DNA of 32,000 nt from Candidatus Iainarchaeum sp. (GTDB lineage Archaea > Iainarchaeota > Iainarchaeia > Iainarchaeales > 0-14-0-20-30-16), in NCBI GenBank assembly GCA_028710695.1, contig JAQTTP010000003.1:1-32000 (forward strand). Direction: 5' to 3'. The notes beneath the pieces were generated by a model, which was given only the letters and a program-made list of their open reading frames with translations, did not search any database and was not told where the DNA came from. Below are positions 2 to 31,215 of this stretch, piece after piece. The stretch's first letter is position 1, and every line of letters begins with the position of its first letter. The position numbers and the translations under genes are program-made.

Positions 2-3000
2 AATACTGGATACAATAATGCGGGATATAACACGGGATATGGAAATAATTCAGCATATAACTATCAACCAGGATTAACAGAAGATTATTATTCAAACATG
101 GGCAATTATGTTAACCCTAATTCAAGCATCTACAACAGCCCATCTTATGGAAGTTATACTTCTGGCGGAAGTGCAATTAACTTTATGCCATCAACAATAC
201 AAGTTCTAGCTCCTGGACAGGCAACAATGCTTCAAGGATATATTAATACTCCATCAACATCAAAGCAAACAGAACAATATTATGGAATACAAGCAAGAGG
301 AACAATACAAGGAATTAACCAACAAATATCTGCAAATGGATACCTTGTGATACATGTTTCTCCAGATAAGTGTATTACTCTAAAACAGAAACAAGATAAG
401 TTGACTTACATAAGCGAAACTTTAGGAAAAGAAATTGCAAGATCTTTCACATTAGTGAATAATTGTGCAGAGGCAGTATCAATAACTGGGACAAGCGAAA
501 CAGAATTATTTGGAAACAAAGTAGTTTTATCTGCACCAAATGGAACTACAATTGAATTGGGACAAGAAAAAGAATTTATTTTAACAGTAACTGCAAGCAA
601 AGAAATTTCAAGAGACAACACAGTATTTGTTAAAGGTATTCTTGGTGTAAGCCAAAGCCCATTTAATATTTCATTATTAGTTAATTTGAGATTTGGTGGT
701 GGTGCATTAACTGGAACTGGTGAAGCAACAGTAACAGATCAGAAACAATTGAAAGATTGTGTTACTGGAAATGAAACATCAGTATTCTATCCAAGAATCA
801 CAACTGCTGATTGTTCTACAATGGGTTATTGTGACAGTGAATCAATGTCAAAATATTTGATTGCAAAAATAAAATATTATTTAGAAGTGTATAATAAAAA
901 ATTGACAACAATAAATAACAAATTACAAAATACAAATTGTGAAGTTGGGTCTACTTCCTGTTCATTTGAAGACTTTGGTTTAGAGCCATTAGAATTAGAA
1001 GTTTATTTTTCAAATGATAAATTAACACAAGCTCAGATGGATAACGACTTAAAGAAAATTAATATTGGTCTAATACAAACAGCAATAACTGATGGCGTAG
1101 AATTAACAGAAGTAACATCTACCTGGACGAAAAAATTGTATTTAGATAAGCAACTTGAGGGTTGTGGAAAATATAGTTTAAAAATTACTGGTGCTGTGCA
1201 AGTAATTAATAATGATATAATACAAAAAGACAGTTACAACATGTATGTTCAAGTTTTGAAAAAAGAAAAAACATCTCAATGTGAATTGAAAGTTCAAAAC
1301 GCTTTGAATTATTTGCCAAAAGATACACAAACAAAAAAAGACAATGCATTTGGTTTAAGGCCAGGATACATTGATTATGAAACAACAGATTTAGAGTCAA
1401 TTGGTCAAGAAGTTTCGAAGCATGTATTTAATCAAGATAGATTTTTGAAATCAAGACCTAATACATTATTCTTGAAAAGAGATTCTGTTGCGGAAGGAAA
1501 TTTAGTTGAATTTGAAATAGCACAAAAAGGAACTGATGTAATAACTACTGTAAAGATAAATAAAAATTTGGATATTGGAAATGAAGCCATAGAAAAAGAT
1601 GTTGTAAAAGCAATAACTGGTTTCTTAAATGGAAACTTTGATGGTTGTATTGTAAATACTGGTGAAGGAGTTCCAAACTCCGCAAAAGTAAAATCTGGGA
1701 CTGGCGGTTTAAGTGGAAAAACTAAAGTACCTGGCGAAAAAGAAATTTATGCCGGAGACATAAAATTAGGTGTTTGTAGTAAATTGCCTTTAGGAAAAGG
1801 AACCTGGAAATGTGATATTACAGTTGAATCACAATCTTTGGGAGAAGTAGATTTGTTCTTAACATATCCTGAAGACACTGGCTTGGAAGCATACTTTGAT
1901 TCTAAAGGCGAAAAAACAAAGACACTACAACTAACAAAAGAAGGAAATAAAAGTATTGGAAAAGCAAAAATAAATGTCGAAATTACTGACGCATTCAAAG
2001 TTAATTCTGGTGCAAACAGTGATAGTTCAGGATTATTTTATTATGCGGAAAGAGAAGGAATAAAGACAGAACCAATAAGAATTGCATTTGATGCAGAATG
2101 TGGAATAACTGCACAAACATTTGTGAATGCATTAATGGTTGATATTGGAAAAAATGAAAAAGATTTCAAAGAGTACGCCTTGATTTATGAAAAAGGTGTT
2201 GAGAGTAGAGATACCTGTGAAATCTTTACTGCCTTTGTAAAAGAGGGTTCTCAGTTAGGAGATAAAAGTATTTTTAATGTGGATTTTAAAGGATCAAAGA
2301 AATATGCGACTATAAACTATCCTGATTGTCCATTACAGCAAAAAAGTGTTGTTGCCGCATTGACAAGTAATGCAACAGACCCAACAAAGCTTGGGGCTGC
2401 AACTGCTGCAGGAATGACTGCTTGTATGGTTACAGAAAAATGGATACTGAAATTTTTAGGTCCAATTGGATGGGCTGGAGCAGCATTAGATTGTGGAATA
2501 TTTATGGGTATTAATGTTGGAACAGAATACTATAAAGCCCACAGAATAAATGCAGAAGCAGGAATATCTGAAAAGAATTGGACAGATTCAGTTCATGATG
2601 GATTAGCATCTGTGCCGATTTTGGGAACAATTTTGGGTCTAGAAGATTATTCTAATATAGATGATGAAATTGCACAGATGAAAGAAGAGCAATCATTTGT
2701 TGAAGCTGGAAAAGAAGGGGTATGGGACCAGAAAGAAGAGCAAGGATTGGCAGCAGTGTTGCTTTCATTGAGAAAAGCAAAATCAACTGTTAAACCCGAA
2801 GAAACAACAGTTCCAGAGCCAGAGACTCCAACTACTACTGAGCCTCCGACAACAACAGAACCTCCAACAACAGAGGAGCCACCTGTAGAACCAGAAGAGC
2901 CAGCACCAACAGAAGAACCTCCAAAGGCAACATTTGATCAAGCTAGTTTGGATCAAGCAAATGCGGATCTTGCTACTGCAAAAACAGAATTGGATTCTGC

Positions 3001-5923
3001 ACAAACTGTGGCAGCAGATGCAAAGAATAAAGTTGATTTGAAATCAGGAGAATTGGAGGCAGCAAATAAAAGCGTGGCTGATGCAGAAACAATATATTCT
3101 GATGCAAAAGATAAAACAAAGATAATACAAGCAGAATTGGATGATATTGAAAATGCTTTAAAAAATAATCCTGATTTAGTAAAGAAAAGAAACATTACTG
3201 AAATATTTGAAGAAAGTATGGGCAAGTCCGAGGTCTCTTTGCAAGGTGCAAAAGAAAGATTAGCTGTTACTGTTGCAGAAGAACAAGCAATGTTATCTAA
3301 AATTGATATTCTTGAAAAACAATTAGCGACCGTGACACAATTTGCTCCTGAAGAAATGATTAATGTACAGAATCAAATTGATTGGGCAAAAACACAACAA
3401 CAACTTATTGCAAATCTTAGAGAGACAAGAGAGGGCGTAGTAAAAACTATACAATCTAGTTACGATTCTGCAAAGATAAGTTACGAATCCGCACTAGCAG
3501 ACGAAAAAACCTTATTTGAGTCTTTGAAAAACACAGAAGGACAAAAAATAATTGATAAGCTAACAGTTGCACAAACTGCAGAAGCAGATGCCTTGAAAGT
3601 AGTTGAAACTGCCCAACAGGGTGTGGCTAATGCAGATGACAGTTTAAAAGCAGCAAAAACAGCTCAGAGTACTGCAGATAAAGCAGTAAAAGTTGCTGAA
3701 TCAAAAGTTAAAGTTGCTGAAACTAAAGTAAAGAATCTTGAAATGGCAAAGAACTTAATTGAACACCCAGGATTAACTAATGAAAGATTGAATACTTTAA
3801 CACAAGAGTTAGATGAAATGGATTCCCTTGCAAAAGAGGGAAGAAAGTATGCAAAGGGCACTGAACAAAGAGCAGCATATGCTGCAGAAATAGATGCAAA
3901 AGCCCAGAAGATACATACCTTGTATACTGAATTAGAACCTGAGCTTAAGAACCTTTCAAAGGCTGGTGGAAAGAAACAAGGAAAAGCAGTAATTGCAGCC
4001 TACAAAAAGTTGGGTTTAGAAGGAGCAGGTAAAGAATCTGGCCTAATATTTAAGAGTAGTTTTGGAGAAAAAATAATTGCAAATGAAAGTTTAACAAGTG
4101 AAATAGGAAATGTTAAAGCCGCAGTTAAAGCAAAAATCAGTCCAACACCAATAACTCCTGCGAAAGCAACAATAGATAAAGCAAAATTAGGACAAACTGG
4201 AAAAACAAATGTACCTGACAAGGTGAAAACTACTAAGCCTGCAAAAGCAAAAACACCTTCAAAGCTTAAAACAACTATAAAATCCGGTGCATCAAGAACA
4301 TGGAATTTTATGAAAGGTTTGGGTCAGAGCATTGGTGGTGGTGCAGCAGGAACATTTGCATTCTATGGGATGTTGGACTGGATGCTTGAAACTTCAAAGC
4401 TTCAGATGGTTGTAATAAATGTTGATGCTCCAAAGCAGTTGTATAACTCAACAGGATACACTGGTGCAGTAACCCCATATCTAAATGATGCAAGAACATT
4501 GAAAATATACGAAGGATCTGATGGAAATCAAATTGATAATTGTGGATCATATGGAATCCAAACTGGATTCAAAGAAGCATCAGGAAAGCTTGGCGAAGGA
4601 AGTAAAGAAGATACAAATGTTGGAAAAGGTACAACTGGCGGAGCAGGATTTAGTTCTGAACCAACAGATTATGATGCTTGGATTATAGAAGCAGCAAATA
4701 ATGCAAATAAGAAGGGCGGAATACCTTTAGAACCAGAATTCTTTAAAGCAATTTTAAAATACGAATCAGGATCTGAATTTAGCCCAAATGTAATTTCTAG
4801 TACTGGCTGTTCTGGACTTGGGCAGATTTGTATGAGTAGTGCAATTCAAGAATTTATAAAAGTGCAGTGTAAGCAAAATAAATCTGATGGTCCAAAGAAA
4901 TGTGATACTACTACTTGTAAGGATAGCGACGATTATATTTGGTGTGAGCCTTGTGCTGATGACGGACCAAATTGTGTTCAAGATGACAGATTTGATCCTT
5001 ATAAAAATTTGATGAGCTCAGCAATAACTGTAAAAGGAAAAATAGATTCTGTTGGAGATTGTGGAACTGATAGAATTATGGCTTGGGCAGCAGCATATAA
5101 TATGGGTCAGAAGTGGGTTAAATTAGCTATAGCAAAGAATGGCGGAAATTGTAATGATTGGCCAAATGAAACTTGGTTTAAATTAAAAGAAGTTTCTGAT
5201 GAAAGTAATGGTGAACTTACTGCAGCAAAAATTGCAAACAAAAAAGGAGACTTTACAAATACTTCCAGCGATTATGTTGCAAAAATTAATAATCAATATC
5301 TTGCTTACAAAGGAAGCGGAATAGGATCTGGAGATACCCAAACAGCAAATAATTCTGCAGAAAATAAACCAATAGAAACTTGTGATCAGATTATGTTAGT
5401 TGGAGATTCTTTAACTGAGGGTTATTCGGAAGAGTTTGAAGATAGTTGTCCCGGGGTAGAAGTCTGTGCGGAAAGTGGAAAAAGCACAACTTGGATGGCA
5501 GAGAATTGTTTTACTAACGAAAAATTAGCAAATAAAAAATATGTTGTAATTATGGGTGGAGTTAATAATATTGATACTCCTGATAAAGTTAAATCAGATT
5601 TAGCAAAAATGTATTCCATAGCAAACCAAAAAGGAATTAAAATTTTAGCATTGACAATAATGCCTTGGAAAGGATCAAGTGGCTGGACAGAAGCAGAACA
5701 ACAATATACAGAAAATGTAAATGAGTGGATAAAATCTGCACAGATAAATGGACAAGTTTTGGACACCTATGCTTTGTTTAATGATGGCTCTGATGAATTG
5801 AACGAAAATTACTCAACAAGCGGAAAATTACATTTAAATGAACAGGGGTATGCTGTGCTTTCATCTCAAGTAAGTGGTGCACTTGTTGGTCTTGGAGCTG
5901 AAGGGCAAACACAACCTGCATAA
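2..5923 (+). CDS. Giant multidomain surface/membrane protein, 5'-partial. Order: N/G/Y-rich low complexity, Cys-rich extracellular region, hydrophobic segments, PT linker, roughly 350-aa coiled coil, K/P/T-rich basic stretch, SLT lytic transglycosylase domain, SGNH/GDSL hydrolase domain
   Basis: The frame is open from nt 2 with no stop before the first ATG at 98, so the true start lies upstream of the window. NTGYNNAGYNTGYGNN repeats at nt 2-97. Hydrophobic segments LGAATAAGMTACMV...GWAGAALDCGIFMGINVG (about 2390-2525) and GGGAAGTFAFYGMLDWML (about 4317-4390). A/K/E/Q/L-rich heptad-like region about 2933-3960. SLT and SGNH motifs are listed as sub-features. Stop TAA at 5921-5923. Confidence 0.9.
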   Translation, partial: NTGYNNAGYNTGYGNNSAYNYQPGLTEDYYSNMGNYVNPNSSIYNSPSYGSYTSGGSAINFMPSTIQVLAPGQATMLQGYINTPSTSKQTEQYYGIQARGTIQGINQQISANGYLVIHVSPDKCITLKQKQDKLTYISETLGKEIARSFTLVNNCAEAVSITGTSETELFGNKVVLSAPNGTTIELGQEKEFILTVTASKEISRDNTVFVKGILGVSQSPFNISLLVNLRFGGGALTGTGEATVTDQKQLKDCVTGNETSVFYPRITTADCSTMGYCDSESMSKYLIAKIKYYLEVYNKKLTTINNKLQNTNCEVGSTSCSFEDFGLEPLELEVYFSNDKLTQAQMDNDLKKINIGLIQTAITDGVELTEVTSTWTKKLYLDKQLEGCGKYSLKITGAVQVINNDIIQKDSYNMYVQVLKKEKTSQCELKVQNALNYLPKDTQTKKDNAFGLRPGYIDYETTDLESIGQEVSKHVFNQDRFLKSRPNTLFLKRDSVAEGNLVEFEIAQKGTDVITTVKINKNLDIGNEAIEKDVVKAITGFLNGNFDGCIVNTGEGVPNSAKVKSGTGGLSGKTKVPGEKEIYAGDIKLGVCSKLPLGKGTWKCDITVESQSLGEVDLFLTYPEDTGLEAYFDSKGEKTKTLQLTKEGNKSIGKAKINVEITDAFKVNSGANSDSSGLFYYAEREGIKTEPIRIAFDAECGITAQTFVNALMVDIGKNEKDFKEYALIYEKGVESRDTCEIFTAFVKEGSQLGDKSIFNVDFKGSKKYATINYPDCPLQQKSVVAALTSNATDPTKLGAATAAGMTACMVTEKWILKFLGPIGWAGAALDCGIFMGINVGTEYYKAHRINAEAGISEKNWTDSVHDGLASVPILGTILGLEDYSNIDDEIAQMKEEQSFVEAGKEGVWDQKEEQGLAAVLLSLRKAKSTVKPEETTVPEPETPTTTEPPTTTEPPTTEEPPVEPEEPAPTEEPPKATFDQASLDQANADLATAKTELDSAQTVAADAKNKVDLKSGELEAANKSVADAETIYSDAKDKTKIIQAELDDIENALKNNPDLVKKRNITEIFEESMGKSEVSLQGAKERLAVTVAEEQAMLSKIDILEKQLATVTQFAPEEMINVQNQIDWAKTQQQLIANLRETREGVVKTIQSSYDSAKISYESALADEKTLFESLKNTEGQKIIDKLTVAQTAEADALKVVETAQQGVANADDSLKAAKTAQSTADKAVKVAESKVKVAETKVKNLEMAKNLIEHPGLTNERLNTLTQELDEMDSLAKEGRKYAKGTEQRAAYAAEIDAKAQKIHTLYTELEPELKNLSKAGGKKQGKAVIAAYKKLGLEGAGKESGLIFKSSFGEKIIANESLTSEIGNVKAAVKAKISPTPITPAKATIDKAKLGQTGKTNVPDKVKTTKPAKAKTPSKLKTTIKSGASRTWNFMKGLGQSIGGGAAGTFAFYGMLDWMLETSKLQMVVINVDAPKQLYNSTGYTGAVTPYLNDARTLKIYEGSDGNQIDNCGSYGIQTGFKEASGKLGEGSKEDTNVGKGTTGGAGFSSEPTDYDAWIIEAANNANKKGGIPLEPEFFKAILKYESGSEFSPNVISSTGCSGLGQICMSSAIQEFIKVQCKQNKSDGPKKCDTTTCKDSDDYIWCEPCADDGPNCVQDDRFDPYKNLMSSAITVKGKIDSVGDCGTDRIMAWAAAYNMGQKWVKLAIAKNGGNCNDWPNETWFKLKEVSDESNGELTAAKIANKKGDFTNTSSDYVAKINNQYLAYKGSGIGSGDTQTANNSAENKPIETCDQIMLVGDSLTEGYSEEFEDSCPGVEVCAESGKSTTWMAENCFTNEKLANKKYVVIMGGVNNIDTPDKVKSDLAKMYSIANQKGIKILALTIMPWKGSSGWTEAEQQYTENVNEWIKSAQINGQVLDTYALFNDGSDELNENYSTSGKLHLNEQGYAVLSSQVSGALVGLGAEGQTQPA
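2793..2932 (+). repeat. Pro/Thr/Glu-rich linker with imperfect tandem TTEPP-type repeats inside the giant CDS
   Basis: Translation is KPEETTVPEPETPTTTEPPTTTEPPTTEEPPVEPEEPAPTEEPPKA. The DNA shows reiterated ac(t/a)ac(t/a)gagcc(t/a)cc units around 2826-2885. Confidence 0.8.
4658..5140 (+). other. Domain: SLT (family-1 soluble lytic transglycosylase / goose-lysozyme-like) with a Cys-rich insertion
   Basis: The three SLT signature motifs occur in order: KYESGSEF (catalytic Glu codon 4763-4765), GLGQI (variant of GLMQ), and AAAYNMGQ (AYNxG, 5093-5107). A Cys-rich insert KVQCKQNKSDGPKKCDTTTCKDSDDYIWCEPCADDGPNC lies between motifs 2 and 3. Confidence 0.8.
5381..5870 (+). other. Domain: SGNH/GDSL hydrolase (esterase/deacetylase-type)
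   Basis: Block I is LVGDSLTEGY (GDS at 5402-5410, Ser 5408-5410). Block III-like is VVIMGGVNNI. Block V-like is GKLHLNEQGY (His codon 5831-5833). The usual Asp three residues before this His is not present. Confidence 0.75.
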
Positions 5924-16621: not shown

Positions 16622-16667
16622 TAGCTAATAATTATGTGAATGTTTTGAAATGTTTTAAGTGATTTTG

Positions 16668-18866
16668 ATGGTAAGAAAAGAAGATGTAGTAAAGATTGCA
16701 GGAAAATTGATGGACGATTCAAAGTTTGTAAGAAACATCGGAATTGTTGCACACATTGACCACGGTAAAACAACTTTATCAGACAATATGATTGCAGCAA
16801 ACGGATTAATTTCCCAAGAACTTTCCGGTAAACAATGTTTCATGGATTCCTACTCTTTAGAACAGGAGAGAGGAATCACAATTAACGCATCTAATATTTC
16901 ATTAATCTCAAAAATAGATGGTACAGATTATCTAATTAATTTAATTGACACCCCAGGTCACGTAGACTTTGGAGGAGATGTAATTAGAGCAATGAGAGCA
17001 GTTGATGGTGCTGTTGTTGTTATTGATATTGTTGAAGGTGTAATGCCTCAGACAGAAACAGTTTTAAAAGAAGCATTAAGAGAATATGTAAAGCCAATTT
17101 TATTCTTTAATAAAGTTGATAGATTAGTTAATGAATTAAAAATTGATTTTGATGAAATGCAAAGAAGATTTGTAAAAGTTATATCTGCAGTGAATCAAAT
17201 AATTCTAAAGAACGCACCAGAAGAATTTAGGGATAAATGGCAAGTTAAAGTTCAAGATGATAGTGTTGGATTTGGTTCAGCATATAACAATTGGGCAGTA
17301 ACTATGTCTTCAATGCAGAAAACAAAAATTGGATTTAAAGATGTTTATGAATTCTGTCAAAAAGGAGATCAAAAAACACTTGCACAAAAAAGCCCTTTAG
17401 CAGAAGTATTAATTGGAATGGTTGTTAAGCATATACCTAACCCAATACAAGCTCAGAAATACAGAGTTCCAAAAATTTGGAAAGGAGATTTAACTTCCGA
17501 AGAAGGAAAAGCAATGCTAAATTGTGATCCAAACGGCCCTTTTGCAATGATGGTAACAGATGTTGTTGTTGACCCTCACGCAGGAGATGTTGTAACTGGA
17601 AGAATATTTTCAGGACGAGTTAACAAGGGAGATGAACTTATATTAGTTGGCCAAAACAAGAAAGCAAAGATACAGCAAATGGCTTTATTTATGGGGCCTG
17701 ACAGAATTCCAATTGATGGATTATCTGCAGGAAACATAGGATCTATTCTTGGATTAAAAGAGGCATACGCAGGAAATGCAATTGCTTCAAAAGAGATACA
17801 AGAATTTGAGCAATTTATGACTAATGTTGAACCAGTTATTACAATGTCAGTAGAAGCAAAGGATCCAAAACAACTTCCTAAACTTATTGAAGCTGTAAAG
17901 CAAGTTGTGAAAGAAGATCCAAATGTAAGAGTAAACATAAACCCAGACACTGGAGAGCACTTGATTTCTGGAATGGGAGAATTGCACTTAGAAATTGTAA
18001 GATATAGATTAGAGCACGATATGAAAATACCTTTGGATGTAAGTCCACCAATTGTATTGTACAATGAAGCAATAACTAAACAATCACAATTGATTTGGGC
18101 AAAATCACCAAACAAGCACAACAAGTTTAAGATGATTATTCAGCCAGTTCCACCTGCAGTATTAGAAAAACTGAAGGAATTCAAGCTTAATGGAAAGATT
18201 AGAGAAAACAAAGATGAAGACAAGATCCAAAAGCTTATGGAAGCAGGAATTGAAAAAGAAGAAGCTAAGAAAACTTGGGCTTTGAATAATAATTCTTTAA
18301 TAATAAATAGAACTAGAGGTGTAATCCACATAGGTGAAGTTAAAGAACTTTTAGTTCAAGCATTTATGGAAGCCACAAATGAAGGCCCATTAGCTAAAGA
18401 AAAAGTATGTGGAATAATTATTTATATTGAGGATGCAATATTGCACGAGGATGCAATACACAGAGGCCCAGCACAGATAATCCCTTGTATGACAAGAGGA
18501 ATTTATGCCGGATTGATGACTGCAGATCCAATTATATTGGAGCCAAAGCAGAAATTGTTTATCACAATACCAAATGATTTCATGGGTTCAATGACAAAAG
18601 AACTACAATCAAGAAGAGTTCAGATGGAAGACATGAAGACAGAGGGTGATGACACAATTATAATTACTAAGGCACCAGTAAGAGAATTAATTGGGTTTAG
18701 TGCAGCAGCAAGAGCAGCATCCCAAGGAAGGGCAATCTGGACTGCAGAGTACTGGGGTTATGAACCATTACCTAAGGAATTGCAGAAGAAGGTTGTTGCT
18801 GAAATAAGAACAAGAAAAGGAATGGATCCTGAACCAAAGAGAGCAGAAGAATATATGGATGAGTAA
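16668..18866 (+). CDS. fusA: Translation elongation factor aEF-2
   Basis: G1 AHIDHGKTTLSD, G3 DTPGHVDF, G4 NKVD. Diphthamide-site motif HEDAIHRGPAQ is present. The ORF track's GTG 16659 is the SD (AAGTGATtttgATG), so ATG 16668 is likely. Confidence 0.96.
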   Translation: MVRKEDVVKIAGKLMDDSKFVRNIGIVAHIDHGKTTLSDNMIAANGLISQELSGKQCFMDSYSLEQERGITINASNISLISKIDGTDYLINLIDTPGHVDFGGDVIRAMRAVDGAVVVIDIVEGVMPQTETVLKEALREYVKPILFFNKVDRLVNELKIDFDEMQRRFVKVISAVNQIILKNAPEEFRDKWQVKVQDDSVGFGSAYNNWAVTMSSMQKTKIGFKDVYEFCQKGDQKTLAQKSPLAEVLIGMVVKHIPNPIQAQKYRVPKIWKGDLTSEEGKAMLNCDPNGPFAMMVTDVVVDPHAGDVVTGRIFSGRVNKGDELILVGQNKKAKIQQMALFMGPDRIPIDGLSAGNIGSILGLKEAYAGNAIASKEIQEFEQFMTNVEPVITMSVEAKDPKQLPKLIEAVKQVVKEDPNVRVNINPDTGEHLISGMGELHLEIVRYRLEHDMKIPLDVSPPIVLYNEAITKQSQLIWAKSPNKHNKFKMIIQPVPPAVLEKLKEFKLNGKIRENKDEDKIQKLMEAGIEKEEAKKTWALNNNSLIINRTRGVIHIGEVKELLVQAFMEATNEGPLAKEKVCGIIIYIEDAILHEDAIHRGPAQIIPCMTRGIYAGLMTADPIILEPKQKLFITIPNDFMGSMTKELQSRRVQMEDMKTEGDDTIIITKAPVRELIGFSAAARAASQGRAIWTAEYWGYEPLPKELQKKVVAEIRTRKGMDPEPKRAEEYMDE

Positions 18867-23843: not shown

Positions 23844-24740
23844 TTATTTTCCAAAAACTAAAGGAATTATTTTAGTATATCTTTTTTTGTCTATTCTATA
23901 TGCTAAATAATATGGGCTTAGGGAACGTATGAACAGTAAAAATTTGTTTTGAAAGTTTTTTTTGCTTTTCAAGCCATTTATTTTTTTTACTTTGTATTTG
24001 TCATTTCCGATCGGCTCTGACCAAAAATTGCAAAAATCTAATGCTCCACGCATATTATTAATACAATTTATTCTTAACCCACGTTCCCATCGTCTATTTT
24101 TAAATAACTTTTTCTGTCTTGTTTTTTCCATTTCTGTTTTTAATCTGTCGGCTATTTTTGTAGGCGTAACAATAATTTCATCTTGTTTTGTTTCATAAAA
24201 TATCATTTGTAAAATTGATCCCAAACATTCGATTACATCTACTTGTGCTAGTTGATACATTGAAGAGTTATAAGAAAAAATGTTTTTAGGTATGAACCCC
24301 CAACACTTTAATAATTTTTGGTCTAAAAAGCCATTTGAGGATGATGGGAATGGTTTGTATCTAAATCGGCCATGATAATGATCTATTCCATTGTTAATCC
24401 TAATAGTTACGGGTATTATGTCTTTGCCATTTTTTACTTTGAACGCATATTTTAAATCTTTTTTATTACGATTAAAGCCAATAAGATCTATGTCACTAGT
24501 ATCTGTGGCGCCGTTATAATCGACACTACCATATACAATTAAATCTTCGCAAATTTTTGGCTGTAAAAATAGTGTTCTTATTTCTTGAGAAATTGGCCCT
24601 AACGTTTCTTTTCTTGAACCATTAAAATTATATTTTAATATTTTGTTTGTGTAATAAAAGTCCCAAGTAAGGCCTCTGATCCTTTTGAAGCTATTTAAAA
24701 AATCTTGATGCTCATCTTGTATATTAACTATAAAAACACC
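23844..24740 (-). CDS. Pol-beta-superfamily nucleotidyltransferase-domain protein (up to 298 codons) with no ATG/GTG/TTG start upstream of the catalytic motif. Either a non-canonical start or a start-loss pseudogene
   Basis: My hand translation of the minus strand shows the frame of the 138-aa track ORF (23844-24260) staying open up to a TAG at 24741-24743. The upstream part encodes ...ICEDLIVYGSVDYNGATDTSDIDLIGF..., the hG[GS]x9-13D[h][DE] NTase signature. The only in-frame ATG is at 24260, downstream of that motif. GGGTG (SD-like) follows the TAG, then ATA at 24729-24731. Confidence 0.6.
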   Translation of the reverse strand, partial: GVFIVNIQDEHQDFLNSFKRIRGLTWDFYYTNKILKYNFNGSRKETLGPISQEIRTLFLQPKICEDLIVYGSVDYNGATDTSDIDLIGFNRNKKDLKYAFKVKNGKDIIPVTIRINNGIDHYHGRFRYKPFPSSSNGFLDQKLLKCWGFIPKNIFSYNSSMYQLAQVDVIECLGSILQMIFYETKQDEIIVTPTKIADRLKTEMEKTRQKKLFKNRRWERGLRINCINNMRGALDFCNFWSEPIGNDKYKVKKINGLKSKKNFQNKFLLFIRSLSPYYLAYRIDKKRYTKIIPLVFGK

Positions 24741-24757
24741 CTAATAAATATAAAGCT

Positions 24758-25291
24758 TTATTTTTTAGTTAGCCAACTTTTATGTAAGTTTTCGTACAAT
24801 ATTTTTATTTCTTTCCAGGGAGCCGTATTCTTGTCTTCCATAAACGTTATCATTAATTTATATGCCTCTTCTTTTAATAGTTCTCCATCAATCTTTGGCC
24901 AATTATTTTTATACCAATTTTTTAGGCTGTTTTGATTTATGTTCGTAGCGCCGCCATGTGGATCTGGACAGGCAAAAACAATTCTTGAAATTCTATGGAG
25001 TACTGCAGATCCAAGGCACATTAAACAAGGCTCCAAGGTTGTAAATAACTCAATGTTTGCATGATCAGTTTTTATGCTTTTTTTAATTGCTGCGGAACAT
25101 TTTGCCATTAGTTTTGCTTCAGCATGTGATGCCCAATCCATTTTTGTAAGAATAGAATTCCTTGTTTTACCCACCACCTTGTTATTTATTACTAAAACTG
25201 CACCTACTGGATAATCGCCCTTATTTAAGGCCTGCTTTGCTTCTTTTAGGGCAATCTTCATGAATTTTGTGTCGTTAGTTGAGAATGTCAT
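24758..25291 (-). CDS. CDA-fold zinc deaminase (TadA / guanine-cytosine nucleoside deaminase-like, COG0590-type)
   Basis: HAE (SHAEAKLM) and PCxxC (EPCLMCLGAV) zinc/catalytic motifs, plus IVFACPDPHGGA. There is a TATA-like box about 24 nt upstream of the ATG. Confidence 0.85.
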   Translation of the reverse strand: MTFSTNDTKFMKIALKEAKQALNKGDYPVGAVLVINNKVVGKTRNSILTKMDWASHAEAKLMAKCSAAIKKSIKTDHANIELFTTLEPCLMCLGSAVLHRISRIVFACPDPHGGATNINQNSLKNWYKNNWPKIDGELLKEEAYKLMITFMEDKNTAPWKEIKILYENLHKSWLTKK

Positions 25292-25685: not shown

Positions 25686-26507
25686 TTAGATTAGCAGTTT
25701 AGGCCAGAATAATATGATAATCCCTAATACCACCATTATTAGCCCAGTAATTAGCTTTATCCACTGCATTTGCTTCTTTGAAATTGTTTTTTCTTTGAAA
25801 GAATAGATGAACCACCCAGAAATCGCAAGTAACGGGATTACATAAATTAGGCAATATAATAGTATGTAAAGATAATGTGAGAATCCCAAAGCATTTTGTG
25901 ATAAAATTGTTGTATAAATTAATGGTAGCCCAACAGTACAAGGAATCTCAATCATAGAGGTAAATAAAGCCAATAATACACTTGCACCAATTAAACTTAG
26001 GATCGTTCCGGAAGTTATTTTGTCTTTTAATGCTTGTATCTTCCCAGTTACTTTTGCTTTGTCTTTATCTTGTATCATCAAAGTTATGCCTTTTCTGAAC
26101 CAGATAAATTCTTTCCAGTTTATTAGTCCGGCAATTATTGCAATGATTCCCACAATAATTCTTAAAATATCTACAAATCCGATAACGCTCAGAACTGTAA
26201 GCCATGCAGACATGAAAAGGAAATAAATCACAAAAACAACAATGATGAATGATAATGCAACCGCAAGCATCTTTTTTCTTGAATCTGAAACCGAAACAAG
26301 TAAGCTTAGAATCAAACCAAATACAAAAAATGTGCAAGGATTAAAACCATCTAATAGACCAACAAGAATTGTTAAAATTGGCAACGGCAATGAACCAGCA
26401 AAATTCTTTATTGAATCTTGATTTATTAAACTTAAAACTATGAATATAAGTATTATTCCAACAAGTAGGCTTAAACTAATGATTAATCTTTTTTTGTTGG
26501 GAGTCAT
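25686..26507 (-). CDS. CcdA/DsbD-like polytopic membrane thiol-disulfide transporter
   Basis: About 6 hydrophobic helices, with two intramembrane Pro-Cys motifs (LLDGFNPCTFFVF and MIEIPCTVGLPL) as in CcdA/DsbD-type proteins. It lies 7 nt downstream of the thioredoxin-like gene. Confidence 0.6.
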   Translation of the reverse strand: MTPNKKRLIISLSLLVGIILIFIVLSLINQDSIKNFAGSLPLPILTILVGLLDGFNPCTFFVFGLILSLLVSVSDSRKKMLAVALSFIIVVFVIYFLFMSAWLTVLSVIGFVDILRIIVGIIAIIAGLINWKEFIWFRKGITLMIQDKDKAKVTGKIQALKDKITSGTILSLIGASVLLALFTSMIEIPCTVGLPLIYTTILSQNALGFSHYLYILLYCLIYVIPLLAISGWFIYSFKEKTISKKQMQWIKLITGLIMVVLGIIILFWPKLLI

Positions 26508-26514
26508 TAAATGA

Positions 26515-26976
26515 TCACTTTTGCTCTAATGCATATTTACTTAGTGTTTCTAGTAAAGTATTTTCATCCATAAATCCAATATAAGCATCCCCGCCAATTA
26601 TTGTTGTGGGTGTATATTGGAAATCAACCATTAATGTATCTTCAATATAACTTCTTTGTTCTGATTCTGAAACATCATATTTATGGAAAACATAATTTGT
26701 GTCTTGTTCTACTTTTTCAATTGTTTTTAAAAATTCTTTACATGCTCCACAATATTTTGACTCTATAACCACAATCTTGTCTTTTATGTTTCCTGCTTCA
26801 ACATTGGCAGCAGGAATTGGGCCGTCTTTGGCTATAAAAAAAGTCTTTAACACATTACTATCAGAATTTGTGTCATTGTTGCTATTATTTGAATTGCCTG
26901 AAAGTACCATCAAAACTACTATTACTATTACTAATAAAACAAGTACAATTGTGGAGTAAAGATTCTTTTTGTCCAT
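26515..26976 (-). CDS. Membrane-anchored thioredoxin-fold protein (CxxC)
   Basis: N-terminal anchor LYSTIVLVLLVIVIVVLMVL, an N/S-rich linker, then VVIESKYCGACKEF (CGAC active-site-like motif) followed by a Trx-like beta/alpha pattern. Confidence 0.7.
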   Translation of the reverse strand: MDKKNLYSTIVLVLLVIVIVVLMVLSGNSNNSNNDTNSDSNVLKTFFIAKDGPIPAANVEAGNIKDKIVVIESKYCGACKEFLKTIEKVEQDTNYVFHKYDVSESEQRSYIEDTLMVDFQYTPTTIIGGDAYIGFMDENTLLETLSKYALEQK

Positions 26977-27121: not shown

Positions 27122-29161
27122 TTACTTTTTCTTTAATTCTAATTTTTCAATGGAGAGGTTATGGTTATATTCTCCTTCAGAATGTTTTGTTGATTTTACT
27201 ATTTCTACTTTCTTTTTGAAACTTGGAGAGTCTAAAACAAAGGATTCATACTCTCCGCCTTCTCCTGCAATATTGAAACCGAGCTTTTCGTTTATCTTTT
27301 TAAGTTTTTCCAACATTTTTTTGTCTATCTCTTTTCCAAGATCTTCTTGAGTTAGACCGTGGGCACAAATTTTTGTGATTATTGCTTTTATTCCTCTGCT
27401 TATTAGTTCATTAACTTCTTGTTCTTGGTTTTTGTGCCATAACGGCGCCAAGCATTTTAAACCTAATTTTTCAGTAATAATTTCAATTCTATCTCTTTGA
27501 TATTCTGAAAATATTGCTCCACTTGCAATTGAATTTATATTATATTTTTCTTTTGCAATCTTTATTGCTTTTTCTAATTCTTTTAACTCAAGTTCTTTTT
27601 CTCCTTTTGTTTTTAATACAATAATTGGAATCTCTAATGCCTTTGCCTGAAGTTTTGCTAAAGAAATGTTTGGTGTATGGTACATGTAAGAATCTTTATT
27701 TTTACTATCAATTGTAATTAAACATTTAATATCATAATTCATGCTTTTTAAAATTTCTAAAGTCAAAACAGAATCTTTTCCGCCTGTAAAAAGAATTCCA
27801 ACATTATCATTATTTTTTGAAATATATTTTTTGTAGTATTCTCCTTTTTGTTTTAACTCGCCCTTTGCAAGTTTTGTTATTGCTTTATCAAATCCGCTGC
27901 TAAATTGTGCTGCCTTTCTTGCTCTAAATGCAATTTCTTTTGGGAGATAATCTGATGCAATTTCTCTCAAAATATATTTCTTTATTTTATCCTTTATTTT
28001 GTGCTTTATATCAATATTTATTGCATACTTTACTAGTTCTTTGTCCAGGAGCGGTACTCTAAGCTCAATAGAATTATTCATACAAATTAAATCGTCTCTA
28101 TAAAGGTCTCTGTGGAAAATATTCTTTAAACCATAAAGCCCGTCTTTGTTTGAAGTGTATCTGTCGTATCCAATAAACACATCTTCACTGCCTAATCCAC
28201 TTAGCATAACTTTGATTCCGTCTTTCTTTGCTTCTTTTGTGCAAAAGTAGAATGGTAATGCAACTCCAATTTTTACAGGATCCGATGTTTCTAATATTTT
28301 TATAATTTCTGGCAGTGCTTTAAGAATTTCTTTTTCTGTTGCAATAATTTTTTTTAGTTTTAATCCTAAATGTTTTGCAACAATTTCCGCGTATTTTTCG
28401 TCTTCGCTTTTTGTTATCGCAGACGCAACATAGCAAGTAATATTTTTGTTGTACTTCTTGGCGATTGCTGTTATAATACTTGAATCTACTCCGCCAGAAA
28501 GAAGTATTCCTATTTTCTTGTTTGTGTTTACTCTTTTTTTAACTGCCTGTTCAAGTAGGGCCTTAATGTCCTGTTTTTCTTTGCCTAAGTTTACTTTGCA
28601 GGTTAGTTCTTTGTAAAAATCAATAAAATGAGTATTTGTTTTTTTTGTTTTTAAATTATATTCTAAAATATTTCTTGGGTGTAAATCTTGTGCAGTTTCT
28701 TGTGCGAACTTTGGTAATGCCTTTTTTTCAGATGCAAAATAAAATCCTTTTTTTGTGTTTGAATACCAAATTGGTTTTAACCCAAAAAAATCTCTTGCAA
28801 GTAGGGCAATATTTTTATCAGCATATACAAAAGCGTAATCACCGTCTAATTCTTTAATGGCATCTATATTTTTTTTCTTTAATAATTTAAATAAAAGTTC
28901 AGCATCATTTTTTGCACCAAGTTTGTATTTTTTGTTTAGTTCTTCCCAATTATAAATTTCACAATTAGCAGCTAATATTGCCTCTTTGTCAGATATTGGC
29001 TGTGGAATGTTTTCAACAATAGCAAGTAGGTTTTGTCCAAAGGTAGAATTATTCCAAGAAACGACTTTTGAAGAGTCTGGGCCCCTGTGTTTTAGCACAA
29101 GAAGCATTTCTTTCACAGTTTTCTCATCCTTCTTGTTGATTATTCCTGCTATTCCGCACAT
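27122..29161 (-). CDS. Tripartite fusion: class-II glutamine amidotransferase, asparagine-synthase PP-loop domain, and Dph6-like (diphthine-ammonia ligase / MJ0570-type) PP-loop ATPase domain
   Basis: N-terminus MCGIAGI (Cys2 nucleophile), HRGPD, NCEIYN. AsnB synthetase motif SGGVDS at 28481-28498, with ELRVPLLD and KYILRE downstream. The C-terminal roughly 227 aa carry TGGKDS (27770-27787) and GEGGEYESFVLDSPSF, the hallmarks of the Dph6/ATP-binding-domain-4 family. Confidence 0.85.
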   Translation of the reverse strand: MCGIAGIINKKDEKTVKEMLLVLKHRGPDSSKVVSWNNSTFGQNLLAIVENIPQPISDKEAILAANCEIYNWEELNKKYKLGAKNDAELLFKLLKKKNIDAIKELDGDYAFVYADKNIALLARDFFGLKPIWYSNTKKGFYFASEKKALPKFAQETAQDLHPRNILEYNLKTKKTNTHFIDFYKELTCKVNLGKEKQDIKALLEQAVKKRVNTNKKIGILLSGGVDSSIITAIAKKYNKNITCYVASAITKSEDEKYAEIVAKHLGLKLKKIIATEKEILKALPEIIKILETSDPVKIGVALPFYFCTKEAKKDGIKVMLSGLGSEDVFIGYDRYTSNKDGLYGLKNIFHRDLYRDDLICMNNSIELRVPLLDKELVKYAINIDIKHKIKDKIKKYILREIASDYLPKEIAFRARKAAQFSSGFDKAITKLAKGELKQKGEYYKKYISKNNDNVGILFTGGKDSVLTLEILKSMNYDIKCLITIDSKNKDSYMYHTPNISLAKLQAKALEIPIIVLKTKGEKELELKELEKAIKIAKEKYNINSIASGAIFSEYQRDRIEIITEKLGLKCLAPLWHKNQEQEVNELISRGIKAIITKICAHGLTQEDLGKEIDKKMLEKLKKINEKLGFNIAGEGGEYESFVLDSPSFKKKVEIVKSTKHSEGEYNHNLSIEKLELKKK

Positions 29162-29180: not shown

Positions 29181-29191
29181 TTAATTTATAA
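29181..29191 (-). promoter_or_regulatory. TATA-like box for the asnB::dph6-like gene (leaderless geometry)
   Basis: The minus strand reads TTATAAATTAA, centred about 25 nt upstream of ATG 29161. No SD-like purine run lies in between. Confidence 0.35.
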
Positions 29192-29270
29192 GTTTGTTTC
29201 TCTTTTGTCACAAAGGTTTAAATAATTTATGTGTATTACATATATTATGTATGTGCTGGGGGTTGAGATT

Positions 29271-29489
29271 ATGCCTGCGATAACTTTATCAGTTCCACAA
29301 GATTTAAAGTCTGAGATGGATAAATCTAAGTTTATAAACTGGTCCGAAGTTGCTAGAGAAGCGATAAAGGAAAAAGTGGTTCAACTTAGAATTCTTGATG
29401 ATATTGCAAAAAAATCAAAATTGACTGAAAAAGATGCAATAGACATTAGCAAAAAAATAAACCAGGGAATGAGCAAAAGATATAAGTGA
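29271..29489 (+). CDS. vapB: Ribbon-helix-helix (CopG-like) antitoxin
   Basis: MPAITLSVPQDLKSEMDK...NWSEVAREAI shows the beta-strand/helix/helix pattern of RHH proteins. GGGGTTGAGattATG favours ATG 29271 over the track's 29229. The stop lies 4 nt before the PIN gene. Confidence 0.7.
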   Translation: MPAITLSVPQDLKSEMDKSKFINWSEVAREAIKEKVVQLRILDDIAKKSKLTEKDAIDISKKINQGMSKRYK

Positions 29490-29493
29490 TTTT

Positions 29494-29904
29494 ATGGATC
29501 TAGTTATAGATACAAACATACTAATATCTGCTTTAATAAGTAGTAATGGAAAAATAAGAGAACTAATCTTTTCAGATAAATTTAAACTTTTTGCCCCAGA
29601 ATATGTGTTTTTGGAAATCTATGAACATAAACAAGAAATAATCAAAAAAGCAGAACTTTCTGAATCAGAGTTTGAGTTAGCACTTTCTGTATTATTTACG
29701 AAGATTATTATAACTCCTTCTGAAGAAATCAAAGTTTTTTCTGAAAAAGCAAAACAAGTTTGCCCTGATTTTGACGACTGGCCTTTTTTTGCACTGGCTA
29801 TATTGAAGAATATTCCTCTTTGGAGTGATGACAAGGATTTAAAACAACAAGACGTGATAAAAGTGATGTCTACTAAAGAAATAATTGCCCTATTTTTGTC
29901 CTAA
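29494..29904 (+). CDS. vapC: PIN-domain ribonuclease toxin
   Basis: MDLVIDTNILISAL (first acidic residue in the DTN context), plus LEIYEH, PDFDDWPF and WSDDKDL acidic motifs. Length 136 aa. SD AAGTGATtttATG. Confidence 0.8.
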   Translation: MDLVIDTNILISALISSNGKIRELIFSDKFKLFAPEYVFLEIYEHKQEIIKKAELSESEFELALSVLFTKIIITPSEEIKVFSEKAKQVCPDFDDWPFFALAILKNIPLWSDDKDLKQQDVIKVMSTKEIIALFLS

Positions 29905-30138: not shown

Positions 30139-31215
30139 TTATCTCATTAAATCTTCTTCGTCCATTTCTGATGCAAATTTGTCTAGTTCTTTTGGACCTG
30201 TTCTTACGGCCACATTTAAAATTGCAGTAACATAATTGAACAAAGCTCTTTCAGGAACATTATTTTTTGATCCCCAAGCCACAATTTCTGCTAATTTACT
30301 AAATAAGTAAGTATCACTTATTTGTGCCCCGTATTTTCTTTTATACATTTCTTCTGCAGTTAATAAAGATTCAAAACATTCCAATCTTTTTTCTGGATCT
30401 CTTATTGCAGATAATATTCTGCTTGTTCTATGAAATTCAGGATCTGTTGCCCCGTCATAAAAAGAAAGATTACTTCCTCTTTCTATTGCCTCAAAACTTT
30501 TAGCTACCATTTTTTTCATTGTTTCAATTGGCATGCCTTCACAATATCTTGTAATCTGAGATATTGCATAAAGTACGTTAGAATACCTTCCTTTTAAAAG
30601 TCTGCTATTTTTTGGATAATTATTGCCAATATTATTTAGCCAAAAATAAAACTTTTCTCTTTCTCTTGGGCTTAAATTTGTTCTTGATTCAATTTCTCCA
30701 TGAAAATATTCGCTTAATATGCTAGTAATCCAAGGATCGCGGGAACGTTTTTTTTCGTCATATCTACTAAGTTCTGCTCTTTTTTCTATTGCTGATCTCT
30801 CAAGTTCTCTTAATTTTGCGGCCCTTTCTTGTCTTTTTTTACGTTCCCAAAATTTAAATGTTTTTGCTTCTAACTCTTTTGCTCTTCTACCTTGCTCAGC
30901 AATAACAAAATTCCGTCTTGCATTTTCATCAGTAATTAGTTTATCATAAACTTGTTTTGAAGCATATTGTTCTTTACTTAAAGGTGATGAAATTCTATTT
31001 AATCTATGATTTAACATTTCTAAAATTCGTAATCCTTGTGGTCTGTTTACTCTTCCTACTTCTATTCCTTTTGTTACTGCTTGTATCTGTCTTTGTATTT
31101 GTGATACAACTTTACGTCTTTGAGTTTCTAGTTGAACTGGTCGTAGTTTGTGTATTTCAAATATTTTTTCTTTGGGCAATTCTCGTCTTTCTAGTTCTCT
31201 TACTCTGACAGCCAT
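30139..31215 (-). CDS. Hypothetical protein (358 aa): R/K/E/Q-rich coiled-coil-like N-terminal half, globular helical C-terminal half, acidic tail
   Basis: Long ORF with a terminator-like hairpin downstream and a TATA-like box (minus-strand TATTTATTAG, 31238-31247) about 27 nt upstream of the ATG. I recognise no motif. Confidence 0.7.
   Translation of the reverse strand: MAVRVRELERRELPKEKIFEIHKLRPVQLETQRRKVVSQIQRQIQAVTKGIEVGRVNRPQGLRILEMLNHRLNRISSPLSKEQYASKQVYDKLITDENARRNFVIAEQGRRAKELEAKTFKFWERKKRQERAAKLRELERSAIEKRAELSRYDEKKRSRDPWITSILSEYFHGEIESRTNLSPREREKFYFWLNNIGNNYPKNSRLLKGRYSNVLYAISQITRYCEGMPIETMKKMVAKSFEAIERGSNLSFYDGATDPEFHRTSRILSAIRDPEKRLECFESLLTAEEMYKRKYGAQISDTYLFSKLAEIVAWGSKNNVPERALFNYVTAILNVAVRTGPKELDKFASEMDEEDLMR

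Follow-up and report, generated by a model that had tools for sequence, protein, structure and literature searches.

Why should a diphthine–ammonia ligase carry an asparagine synthetase-like module in the same polypeptide? The question is raised by a 679-amino-acid (aa) open reading frame (ORF) in a 32,000-nucleotide (nt) stretch of a Candidatus Iainarchaeum genome (GenBank assembly GCA_028710695.1, contig JAQTTP010000003.1, positions 1 to 32,000; hereafter ‘the window’), in which a class-II glutaminase domain and an AsnB-like PP-loop ATP-pyrophosphatase domain precede a Dph6 domain (coordinates in Table 1). The architecture itself is already known, and the window protein adds another example to an established class of AsnB–DUF71 fusions. 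What is new here, as read from sequence comparison across the family, is that the AsnB-like half is non-canonical, that the glutaminase has been lost repeatedly and that the two PP-loop domains are constant. On balance we lean towards a reading in which the Dph6 domain would amidate diphthine, the glutaminase, in this protein, would feed it ammonia, and the AsnB-like ATP site would serve Dph6 rather than asparagine synthesis.

The ORF runs from ATG to TAA on the minus strand in a single uninterrupted frame, as a first-pass annotation of this DNA had proposed. The motifs quoted there, for the fusion protein and for elongation factor 2 (EF-2), were all found in place: MCGIAG (aa 1–6), HRGPD (aa 25–29) and NCEIYN (aa 66–71) of the glutaminase; SGGVDS (aa 222–227, nt 28481–28498), the PP-loop of the AsnB-like domain, which also contains SGLGSED (nt 28181–28201); and TGGKDS (aa 459–464, nt 27770–27787), the PP-loop of the Dph6 domain, followed by GEGGEYESFVLDSP (aa 633–646) with EGGEYE (aa 634–639, nt 27245–27262). 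Its three domain assignments were likewise borne out by Pfam and NCBIfam profile searches: GATase_7 spanned aa 52–149 (E = 1e-19), Asn_synthase matched in two stretches (E = 2e-60) and Diphthami_syn_2 (PF01902) spanned aa 454–674 (E = 1e-59; 202 bits against a cut-off of 23.2). The NCBIfam AsnB model NF006949 scored 303 bits, below its cut-off of 499, and a lasso-peptide cyclase model and other amidotransferase models matched more weakly.

It is exceedingly improbable that an error of assembly or sequencing at ~27805–27830 made one frame out of two neighbouring genes. There is no stop codon or frameshift in frame at the junction, and the same single frame crosses it in G006 (same genus, 91% identity, separate assembly) and in ~50 other genomes of the phylum, so the fusion is not an assembly artefact. 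The junction recurs in hundreds of other genomes and its residues are conserved; with a continuous frame shared by many independent assemblies, a chimera or frameshift was ruled out.

Where the first-pass annotation erred was in regarding the architecture as undescribed. AsnB(COG0367)–DUF71 fusions were reported in 2012 by de Crécy-Lagard et al. (Biol Direct 7:32, PMC3541065) from Methanohalophilus mahii, Methanosalsum zhilinae and ‘Ca. Nanosalinarum’, with COG0367/AsnB (GAT-II plus the Asn_Synthase PP-loop) N-terminal to DUF71, and with the same idea of glutamine-derived ammonia, the GAT-II domain being proposed to give ammonia to both PP-loop domains. A reviewer's query printed there, as to which reaction the AsnB-like PP-loop domain performs, was given no answer in that paper. 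In the literature searched, it was the only paper found to link diphthine–ammonia ligase with a glutamine amidotransferase, and a 2021 review lists archaeal Dph6 as still awaiting experimental confirmation (PMC8305020). The window protein shares with the 2012 fusions the domain order GAT-II, Asn_synthase PP-loop, DUF71 in one polypeptide, but differs from them in its host, a DPANN archaeon of ~0.9 Mb, and in having TGGKDS for SGGKDS, Gln43 for His and Arg415 for Lys. Fusions from Methanolobus, Methanohalophilus and Nanosalina are homologous to it at full length (best-segment identity 40–41%) and group with it in both domain trees described below. Yeast Dph6 (YLR143W) also has its Dph6 domain fused to a domain suggested to deliver ammonia (PMC3541065), although its accessory domains are C-terminal, RidA/YjgF-like and unrelated, and include no second PP-loop.

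Nor is the fusion confined to a few genomes: it is both widespread and already annotated. A search of 5.8 billion proteins gave 1753 matches, and 119 of the 120 best of these were 640–709 aa long and had the same three domains at 45–90% identity. These best 120 came from Woesearchaeota, Nanoarchaeota and Diapherotrites; fusion proteins appeared in their sources as ‘diphthine--ammonia ligase’, ‘asparagine synthase’ or ‘ATP-binding protein’. Within the window's phylum 204/215 genomes had a match, ~50 of them as a single frame over essentially the whole query, and with one genome taken per prokaryotic species at least 587 species genomes carried confirmed relatives. Carriers included two cultured strains, Methanolobus bombayensis DSM 7082 and Methanohalophilus sp. 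RSK, together with Methanomethylovorans, ANME-3, ANME-1/Methanophagales, Syntrophoarchaeum, Nanohaloarchaea (a complete Nanosalina genome), Iainarchaeia and Micrarchaeota. Fusions from contigs whose labels read Acidobacteriota bacterium, Thaumarchaeota or Methanosarcinales (L055, L091 and others) grouped tightly with those of Woesearchaeota/Iainarchaeia, and these contigs are probably mis-binned or mislabelled. In G128, from a family whose other members are fused, a 478-aa frame for the AsnB-like part and a 245-aa frame for the Dph6 part lie on different contigs, which could be gene fission or an assembly break. PF28410.1 was listed for all full-length fusions and was absent from the one match without the Dph6 part.

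The AsnB-like half was compared residue by residue by alignment to E. coli AsnB (1CT9), in 119 close fusion proteins and then in representatives of all lineages, among them Methanosarcinaceae, Nanohaloarchaea and ANME-1. The fusion glutaminase keeps the nucleophile Cys2 (nt 29156–29158), Asn66, Glu68 and Asp86, with Cys2, Asn66 and Asp86 each present in 119/119 close relatives. Its description as a ‘complete’ class-II glutaminase is not fully borne out, since the glutamine-binding Arg (E. coli Arg49) is replaced by Leu45 (nt 29027–29029); Leu occupied this position in 118/118 aligned close relatives, one sequence being gapped. At the position of E. coli Gly75 is Cys67 (Cys in 116/119). The equivalent of Arg49 in human ASNS, Arg-48, forms part of the glutamine-recognition network (PMC6748925).

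A second replacement lies in the synthetase domain, where Leu323 (nt 28193–28195) stands at the position of E. coli Glu348. This position was never Glu in the 119 close relatives (Leu 102, Asn 11, others 6), was also Ser, Met, Cys, Ala, Ile, Phe, Thr or Gln in more distant members, and lacked the Glu348 equivalent in all of the >150 family members compared; the loss of Arg49 and Glu348 held in Methanosarcinaceae, Nanohaloarchaea and ANME-1 too. The human counterpart, Glu-364, is needed for catalysis, E364A and E364Q being inactive even with NH4+ (PMC6748925). Alignment with E. coli AsnB moreover stops at residue ~456 of 553, so that the last ~95 residues are missing, and stand-alone AsnB-like relatives end at the same point as the fused module, just after a QYGSG motif. 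AsnB and human ASNS (PDB 1CT9, 6GQ3) share the two-domain fold of the window protein (TM score 0.77–0.80), but differ from it by Arg49→Leu, Gly75→Cys, Glu348→Leu, Asp351→Glu and the missing C-terminus. With the Arg49 and Glu348 equivalents absent family-wide, the earlier naming of the N-terminal part as a standard asparagine synthase is not sustained: as judged from these residues, the AsnB-like half falls outside the canonical asparagine synthetases, and the two N-terminal domains probably constitute a non-canonical amidotransferase of the AsnB family, not the housekeeping asparagine synthetase.

Two genomes allow the fusion to be set against the cell's need for asparagine. G137 encodes a canonical 498-aa AsnB (Arg49, Gly75, Glu348, SGEGADE; TIGR01536 325 bits) beside the fusion, which has Leu, Cys and Leu at the same three positions; with both in one genome, G137 serves as a natural control and shows the canonical enzyme and the fusion to be non-redundant. 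Methanolobus bombayensis has a non-discriminating AspRS (ND-AspRS, 636 bits) together with GatB (569 bits) but lacks AsnRS; its translation accordingly needs no free asparagine (for the ND-AspRS/GatCAB tRNA pathway see PMC2330236), and the fusion is its sole AsnB homologue and its sole Dph6. A 287-bit ‘AsnRS’ match in Methanolobus proved on checking to be the non-discriminating AspRS.

Loss of the glutaminase is frequent within the family. At least 22 genomes of the phylum encode a short form (~495–530 aa) that starts ~30 residues before SGGxDS and continues through Dph6, in ORFs that are complete and lie inside their contigs. No glutaminase ORF was found upstream of the short forms, and in 3/5 short-form genomes tested no AsnB-type glutaminase occurred anywhere in the genome; a split-off glutaminase gene was rejected on these grounds. 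In ANME-1/Methanophagales, Methanospirareceae, Syntrophoarchaeum and some ‘Halobacteria’-labelled metagenome-assembled genomes the glutaminase is present and dead, with Cys1 changed to Thr, Tyr or Ser, Asn74 to Asp, and Asp98 to Ser or a gap. Glutamine-dependent ammonia channelling, which the first-pass annotation had put forward, is possible for the window protein, whose glutaminase looks active, but cannot explain the fusion generally, because many lineages without a working glutaminase keep the PP-loop domain and Dph6.

Trees of the synthetase domain and of the Dph6 domain were congruent, and in both the fused forms grouped together, with the stand-alone proteins apart. Short forms were polyphyletic (at least three changes forced by well-supported branches, six most parsimonious), indicating repeated loss of the glutaminase. 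The dead-glutaminase sequences of ANME-1 and Methanospirareceae formed one clade (100/100) nested among DPANN-type sequences, with Syntrophoarchaeum outside it, and the Methanosarcinaceae fusions formed another. This clade pattern suggests that the whole gene may have been transferred between lineages.

With the glutaminase gone, the AsnB-like PP-loop domain could have become a decaying scaffold. The 26 columns conserved at ≥95% in full forms were compared in 12 short and 8 dead forms. The ATP-pyrophosphatase core, namely SGGxDS, D254, G322, G324, G331, P370, R399 and A417-x-QYG, was retained by 12/12 of the short and 8/8 of the dead forms, and K395 by 12/12 and 7/8, respectively; residues lost in short forms were mainly R210, Y354 and R368. 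Relative to Dph6, divergence of the AsnB-like PP-loop domain was 1.14 in full, 1.19 in dead and 1.26–1.28 in short forms. A decaying scaffold was rejected, since the core motifs are fully kept and divergence is only ~10% faster relative to Dph6; with the ratio barely raised, the domain is neither passive scaffolding nor simply a conduit. On the evidence of these alignments, the PP-loop domains are the pair that stays constant, and the glutaminase can be dispensed with.

The C-terminal domain was assigned to Dph6 by several concordant lines of evidence, namely curated model, signature residues, fold and its status as the sole Dph6 of the genome. It passes the curated TIGR03679 model (Dph6_archaeal; 258.8 bits, cut-off 197.3). 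The stand-alone Dph6 proteins PF0828 (PDB 3RJZ/3RK0/3RK1) and PH1257 (PDB 2D13), which lack any N-terminal extension, match its 227 residues (E = 5e-46 and 2e-51, respectively, by sequence alignment) and superpose on them in Foldseek (TM score 0.95, root-mean-square deviation 1.2–1.4 Å). They have in common with the window protein the PP-loop, the EGGE[FY]E motif and nine Dph6-specific residues, S44, Y45, E78, Y103, Q104, A149, E183, E186 and E188 in PF0828 (PMC3541065), all of which are kept as S491, Y492, E525, Y554, Q555, A600, E634, E637 and E639. Across 118 sequences of the family seven of these nine are invariant, as are the Glu and Gly residues of EGGE[FY]E, and the first PP-loop residue is Thr in five and Ser in all the others.

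The rest of the diphthamide pathway is also present. A PF01902 search of the 0.9-Mb genome, which is 86% complete, gave the fusion as its single locus and no separate dph6; dph2 (182.7 bits) and dph5 (202.1 bits, frame intact) were both found, an apparent ‘2 TAA’ inside dph5 being a boundary effect. The diphthamide context of EF-2, HEDAIHRG, is there as well, its second His (aa 601) being the residue that bears diphthamide in characterised EF-2s and the site presumed to be modified here. As the genome's only Dph6, the fusion's Dph6 domain must perform the amidation if diphthamide is made, and from strong homology we infer that it is the cell's only diphthine–ammonia ligase.

An AlphaFold2 (AF2) model built from 118 sequences had a mean predicted local distance difference test score (pLDDT) of 93.2 and a predicted template modelling score of 0.90. 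Helices were predicted at aa 424–433 and 439–446 of the junction (block-mean pLDDT 85–92), in which K430, Y442, L443 and N451 are nearly invariant in the family alignment. In Foldseek the AsnB-like part of the model matched 1ct9 (TM score 0.79–0.80), and no solved structure spanning all three domains was found (best query-normalised TM score 0.59). Such a model suits a single fixed body of three domains better than independent enzymes on a tether.

How the parts might work together can be set out from these observations. The Dph6 domain would adenylate the diphthine carboxylate on archaeal EF-2 (aEF-2), and ammonia would displace AMP to yield diphthamide. The Cys2 glutaminase of the window protein looks competent to release ammonia from an amide donor and, being intact, would constitute a built-in nitrogen supply. 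The AsnB-like PP-loop domain looks competent for ATP binding and cleavage, with Leu replacing the residues that AsnB uses for the glutamine carboxylate (Arg49) and for β-aspartyl-AMP formation (Glu348), and would also play an ATP-dependent part in its own right, one retained by lineages without the glutaminase. Most likely the N-terminal module works with Dph6 in one compact protein: the confidence of the AF2 model, the structured and conserved junction and the congruent domain trees argue that the module acts as a unit.

Several observations weigh against a joint function in diphthamide synthesis. The window protein exceeds the cut-off of TIGR01536 asn_synth_AEB (330 bits against 267), and most residues of the ATP and aspartate sites are kept. 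The AsnB-like half retains the equivalents of Asn74, Glu76, Asp98, the PP-loop, Asp384, Arg387 and Lys429, has Glu for Asp351, and aligns Arg415 with Lys449 (Lys in 110/119), with Lys416 adjoining. Its genome encodes AsnRS (465 bits), has an amidotransferase only of GatE type and yielded no second AsnB in a PF00733 search, so it must obtain free asparagine, and the fusion may yet be a source of it here. Sister families have a stand-alone Dph6 (~230 aa) and an unlinked AsnB-like protein, the most reduced relatives (family f34, 0.5–0.7 Mb) have Dph6 alone, and Sulfolobus acidocaldarius, used as a control, has Dph6, Dph2 and Dph5 and no Asn_synthase domain (PF00733); the AsnB-like partner is not obligatory for Dph6. 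Nor did the fusion gene have a conserved neighbour, the commonest occurring at 9/80 loci and none being dph2, dph5 or EF-2. The EF-2 gene 8 kb away in the window is therefore a coincidence, and linkage through it or through an operon was ruled out. Much of this would suit a bifunctional protein, in which a divergent but working asparagine synthetase supplying AsnRS and an independent Dph6 would be joined for co-expression or inheritance only, with no mechanistic link. E. coli AsnB can use ammonia too, and an ammonia-dependent enzyme would survive loss of its glutaminase. We nevertheless consider this unlikely: the Glu348 that ASNS needs even with NH4+ (PMC6748925) is absent throughout the family, as is Arg49, the ~95 C-terminal residues are missing, and most other members fall below the TIGR01536 cut-off that the window protein passes (263, 214, 194 and 128 bits). 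G137, moreover, holds a canonical AsnB as well as the fusion, and M. bombayensis retains the fusion in spite of having ND-AspRS/GatCAB and no AsnRS.

The same residue losses could instead point away from both asparagine and EF-2, the AsnB-like module adenylating and amidating some other carboxylate, of a metabolite or protein, and having been fused to Dph6 as one small housekeeping PP-loop enzyme to another. Different chemistries are indeed known among AsnB-family enzymes that lack Glu348. Both CarA and beta-lactam synthetase (PDB 1Q15, 1JGT) keep the PP-loop, have the Glu348 equivalent replaced (Tyr in CarA, by alignment) and possess an N-terminal domain that is non-functional or repurposed, and there are the weak lasso-peptide cyclase matches; these two enzymes, however, form intramolecular amides for antibiotics, have no Dph6 domain and are much less similar to the whole window protein (E = 7e-14 and 1e-12). 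The constraint on the ATP-pyrophosphatase core independently of the glutaminase, and the stand-alone AsnB-like proteins unlinked to Dph6, are also what a third substrate would predict. Against it, the fusion has persisted and, with congruent trees, has apparently moved between phyla as a unit, its junction is conserved, its model is compact and confident, and gene neighbourhoods yield no candidate substrate; we regard a substrate unrelated to EF-2 as distinctly improbable, and a shared function of the N-terminal module with Dph6 as the likelier reading.

The unlinked AsnB-like proteins of the sister families are of two kinds, 466–489 aa (Leu49, Gln348) or PP-loop-only, 263–277 aa. The latter, seen in G053, G184 and G182 (L124–L126) apart from a stand-alone Dph6, represent a minimal form of the AsnB-like domain with neither glutaminase nor Dph6. 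An origin of the stand-alone AsnB-like proteins as unfused copies from inside the fused clade was rejected, the synthetase-domain tree placing them in a separate clade, so that they may not be equivalent to the fused module.

Table 1. Positions of the fusion gene, its domains and associated features in the window.
Feature	Positions	Strand	Evidence
AsnB-like amidotransferase + Dph6 fusion ORF, 679 aa + TAA stop	27122..29161	minus	ORF list, domain scans, same-frame orthologues
Class-II (Ntn) glutaminase domain, aa 1–190	28592..29161	minus	Pfam GATase_7/GATase_6, alignment to 1CT9
AsnB-like PP-loop ATP-pyrophosphatase domain, aa 191–423	27893..28591	minus	Pfam Asn_synthase, alignments, Foldseek to 1ct9
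Structured junction, aa 424–452	27806..27892	minus	AF2 secondary structure, conservation in alignment
Dph6 (diphthine–ammonia ligase) domain, aa 453–679	27125..27805	minus	TIGR03679, PH1257/PF0828 matches, Foldseek, signature residues
TTATAAAT, TATA-box-like octamer	29184..29191	minus	Read from sequence; 23–30 nt upstream of fusion ATG
Presumed substrate site HEDAIHRG, aa 596–603 of aEF-2 (ORF 16659–18866)	18444..18467	plus	Translation, motif search

The TTATAAAT octamer is tentatively a candidate promoter, and would imply a leaderless or near-leaderless mRNA. Beside the fusion gene, at 29229–29904 on the plus strand, an 86-aa ORF without a Pfam match is followed after 4 nt by a 136-aa PIN_2 protein (E = 2e-27), a pair whose layout looks like that of a VapBC-type toxin–antitoxin system. 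Other genes of the window include a 177-aa protein of cytidine/deoxycytidylate-deaminase fold (24758–25291, minus strand; MafB19-deam E = 2e-19, dCMP_cyt_deam_1 E = 3e-17), adjoined by a 138-aa ORF without a Pfam match (23844–24260), and, at 25686–26976 on the minus strand, a 153-aa protein with a weak, sub-cut-off thioredoxin-like match beside an apparent membrane protein of 273 aa without a Pfam match. At 30139–31215 (minus strand) lies an ORF of 358 aa with many charged residues and, again, no Pfam match, and a 1941-aa ORF (98–5923, plus strand) opens the window, upstream of a block of RNA polymerase, ribosomal protein and EF-2 genes.

Diphthamide is found on the EF-2 of most archaea and eukaryotes, where it helps to keep translational fidelity, although the pathway is absent from some lineages (Narrowe et al. 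2018); diphtheria toxin, too, has it as its target (Uthman et al. 2013). Of natural clues to the nitrogen source of Dph6 the fusion is the best, and it dates from 2012. The window protein in itself adds one more member, and it is the family-wide comparison that sharpens the question, by revealing three natural variants, in which the glutaminase is active, dead or missing and the AsnB-like ATP site is intact throughout. A bolder account, possible if somewhat doubtful, is that in these archaea diphthamide synthetase is in effect a two-PP-loop enzyme, in which the AsnB-like domain would perform or gate a second ATP-dependent step on EF-2 or diphthine and the glutaminase would be an optional add-on for nitrogen supply. 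If true, this would give a role to archaeal AsnB-like paralogues, even in genomes without AsnRS.

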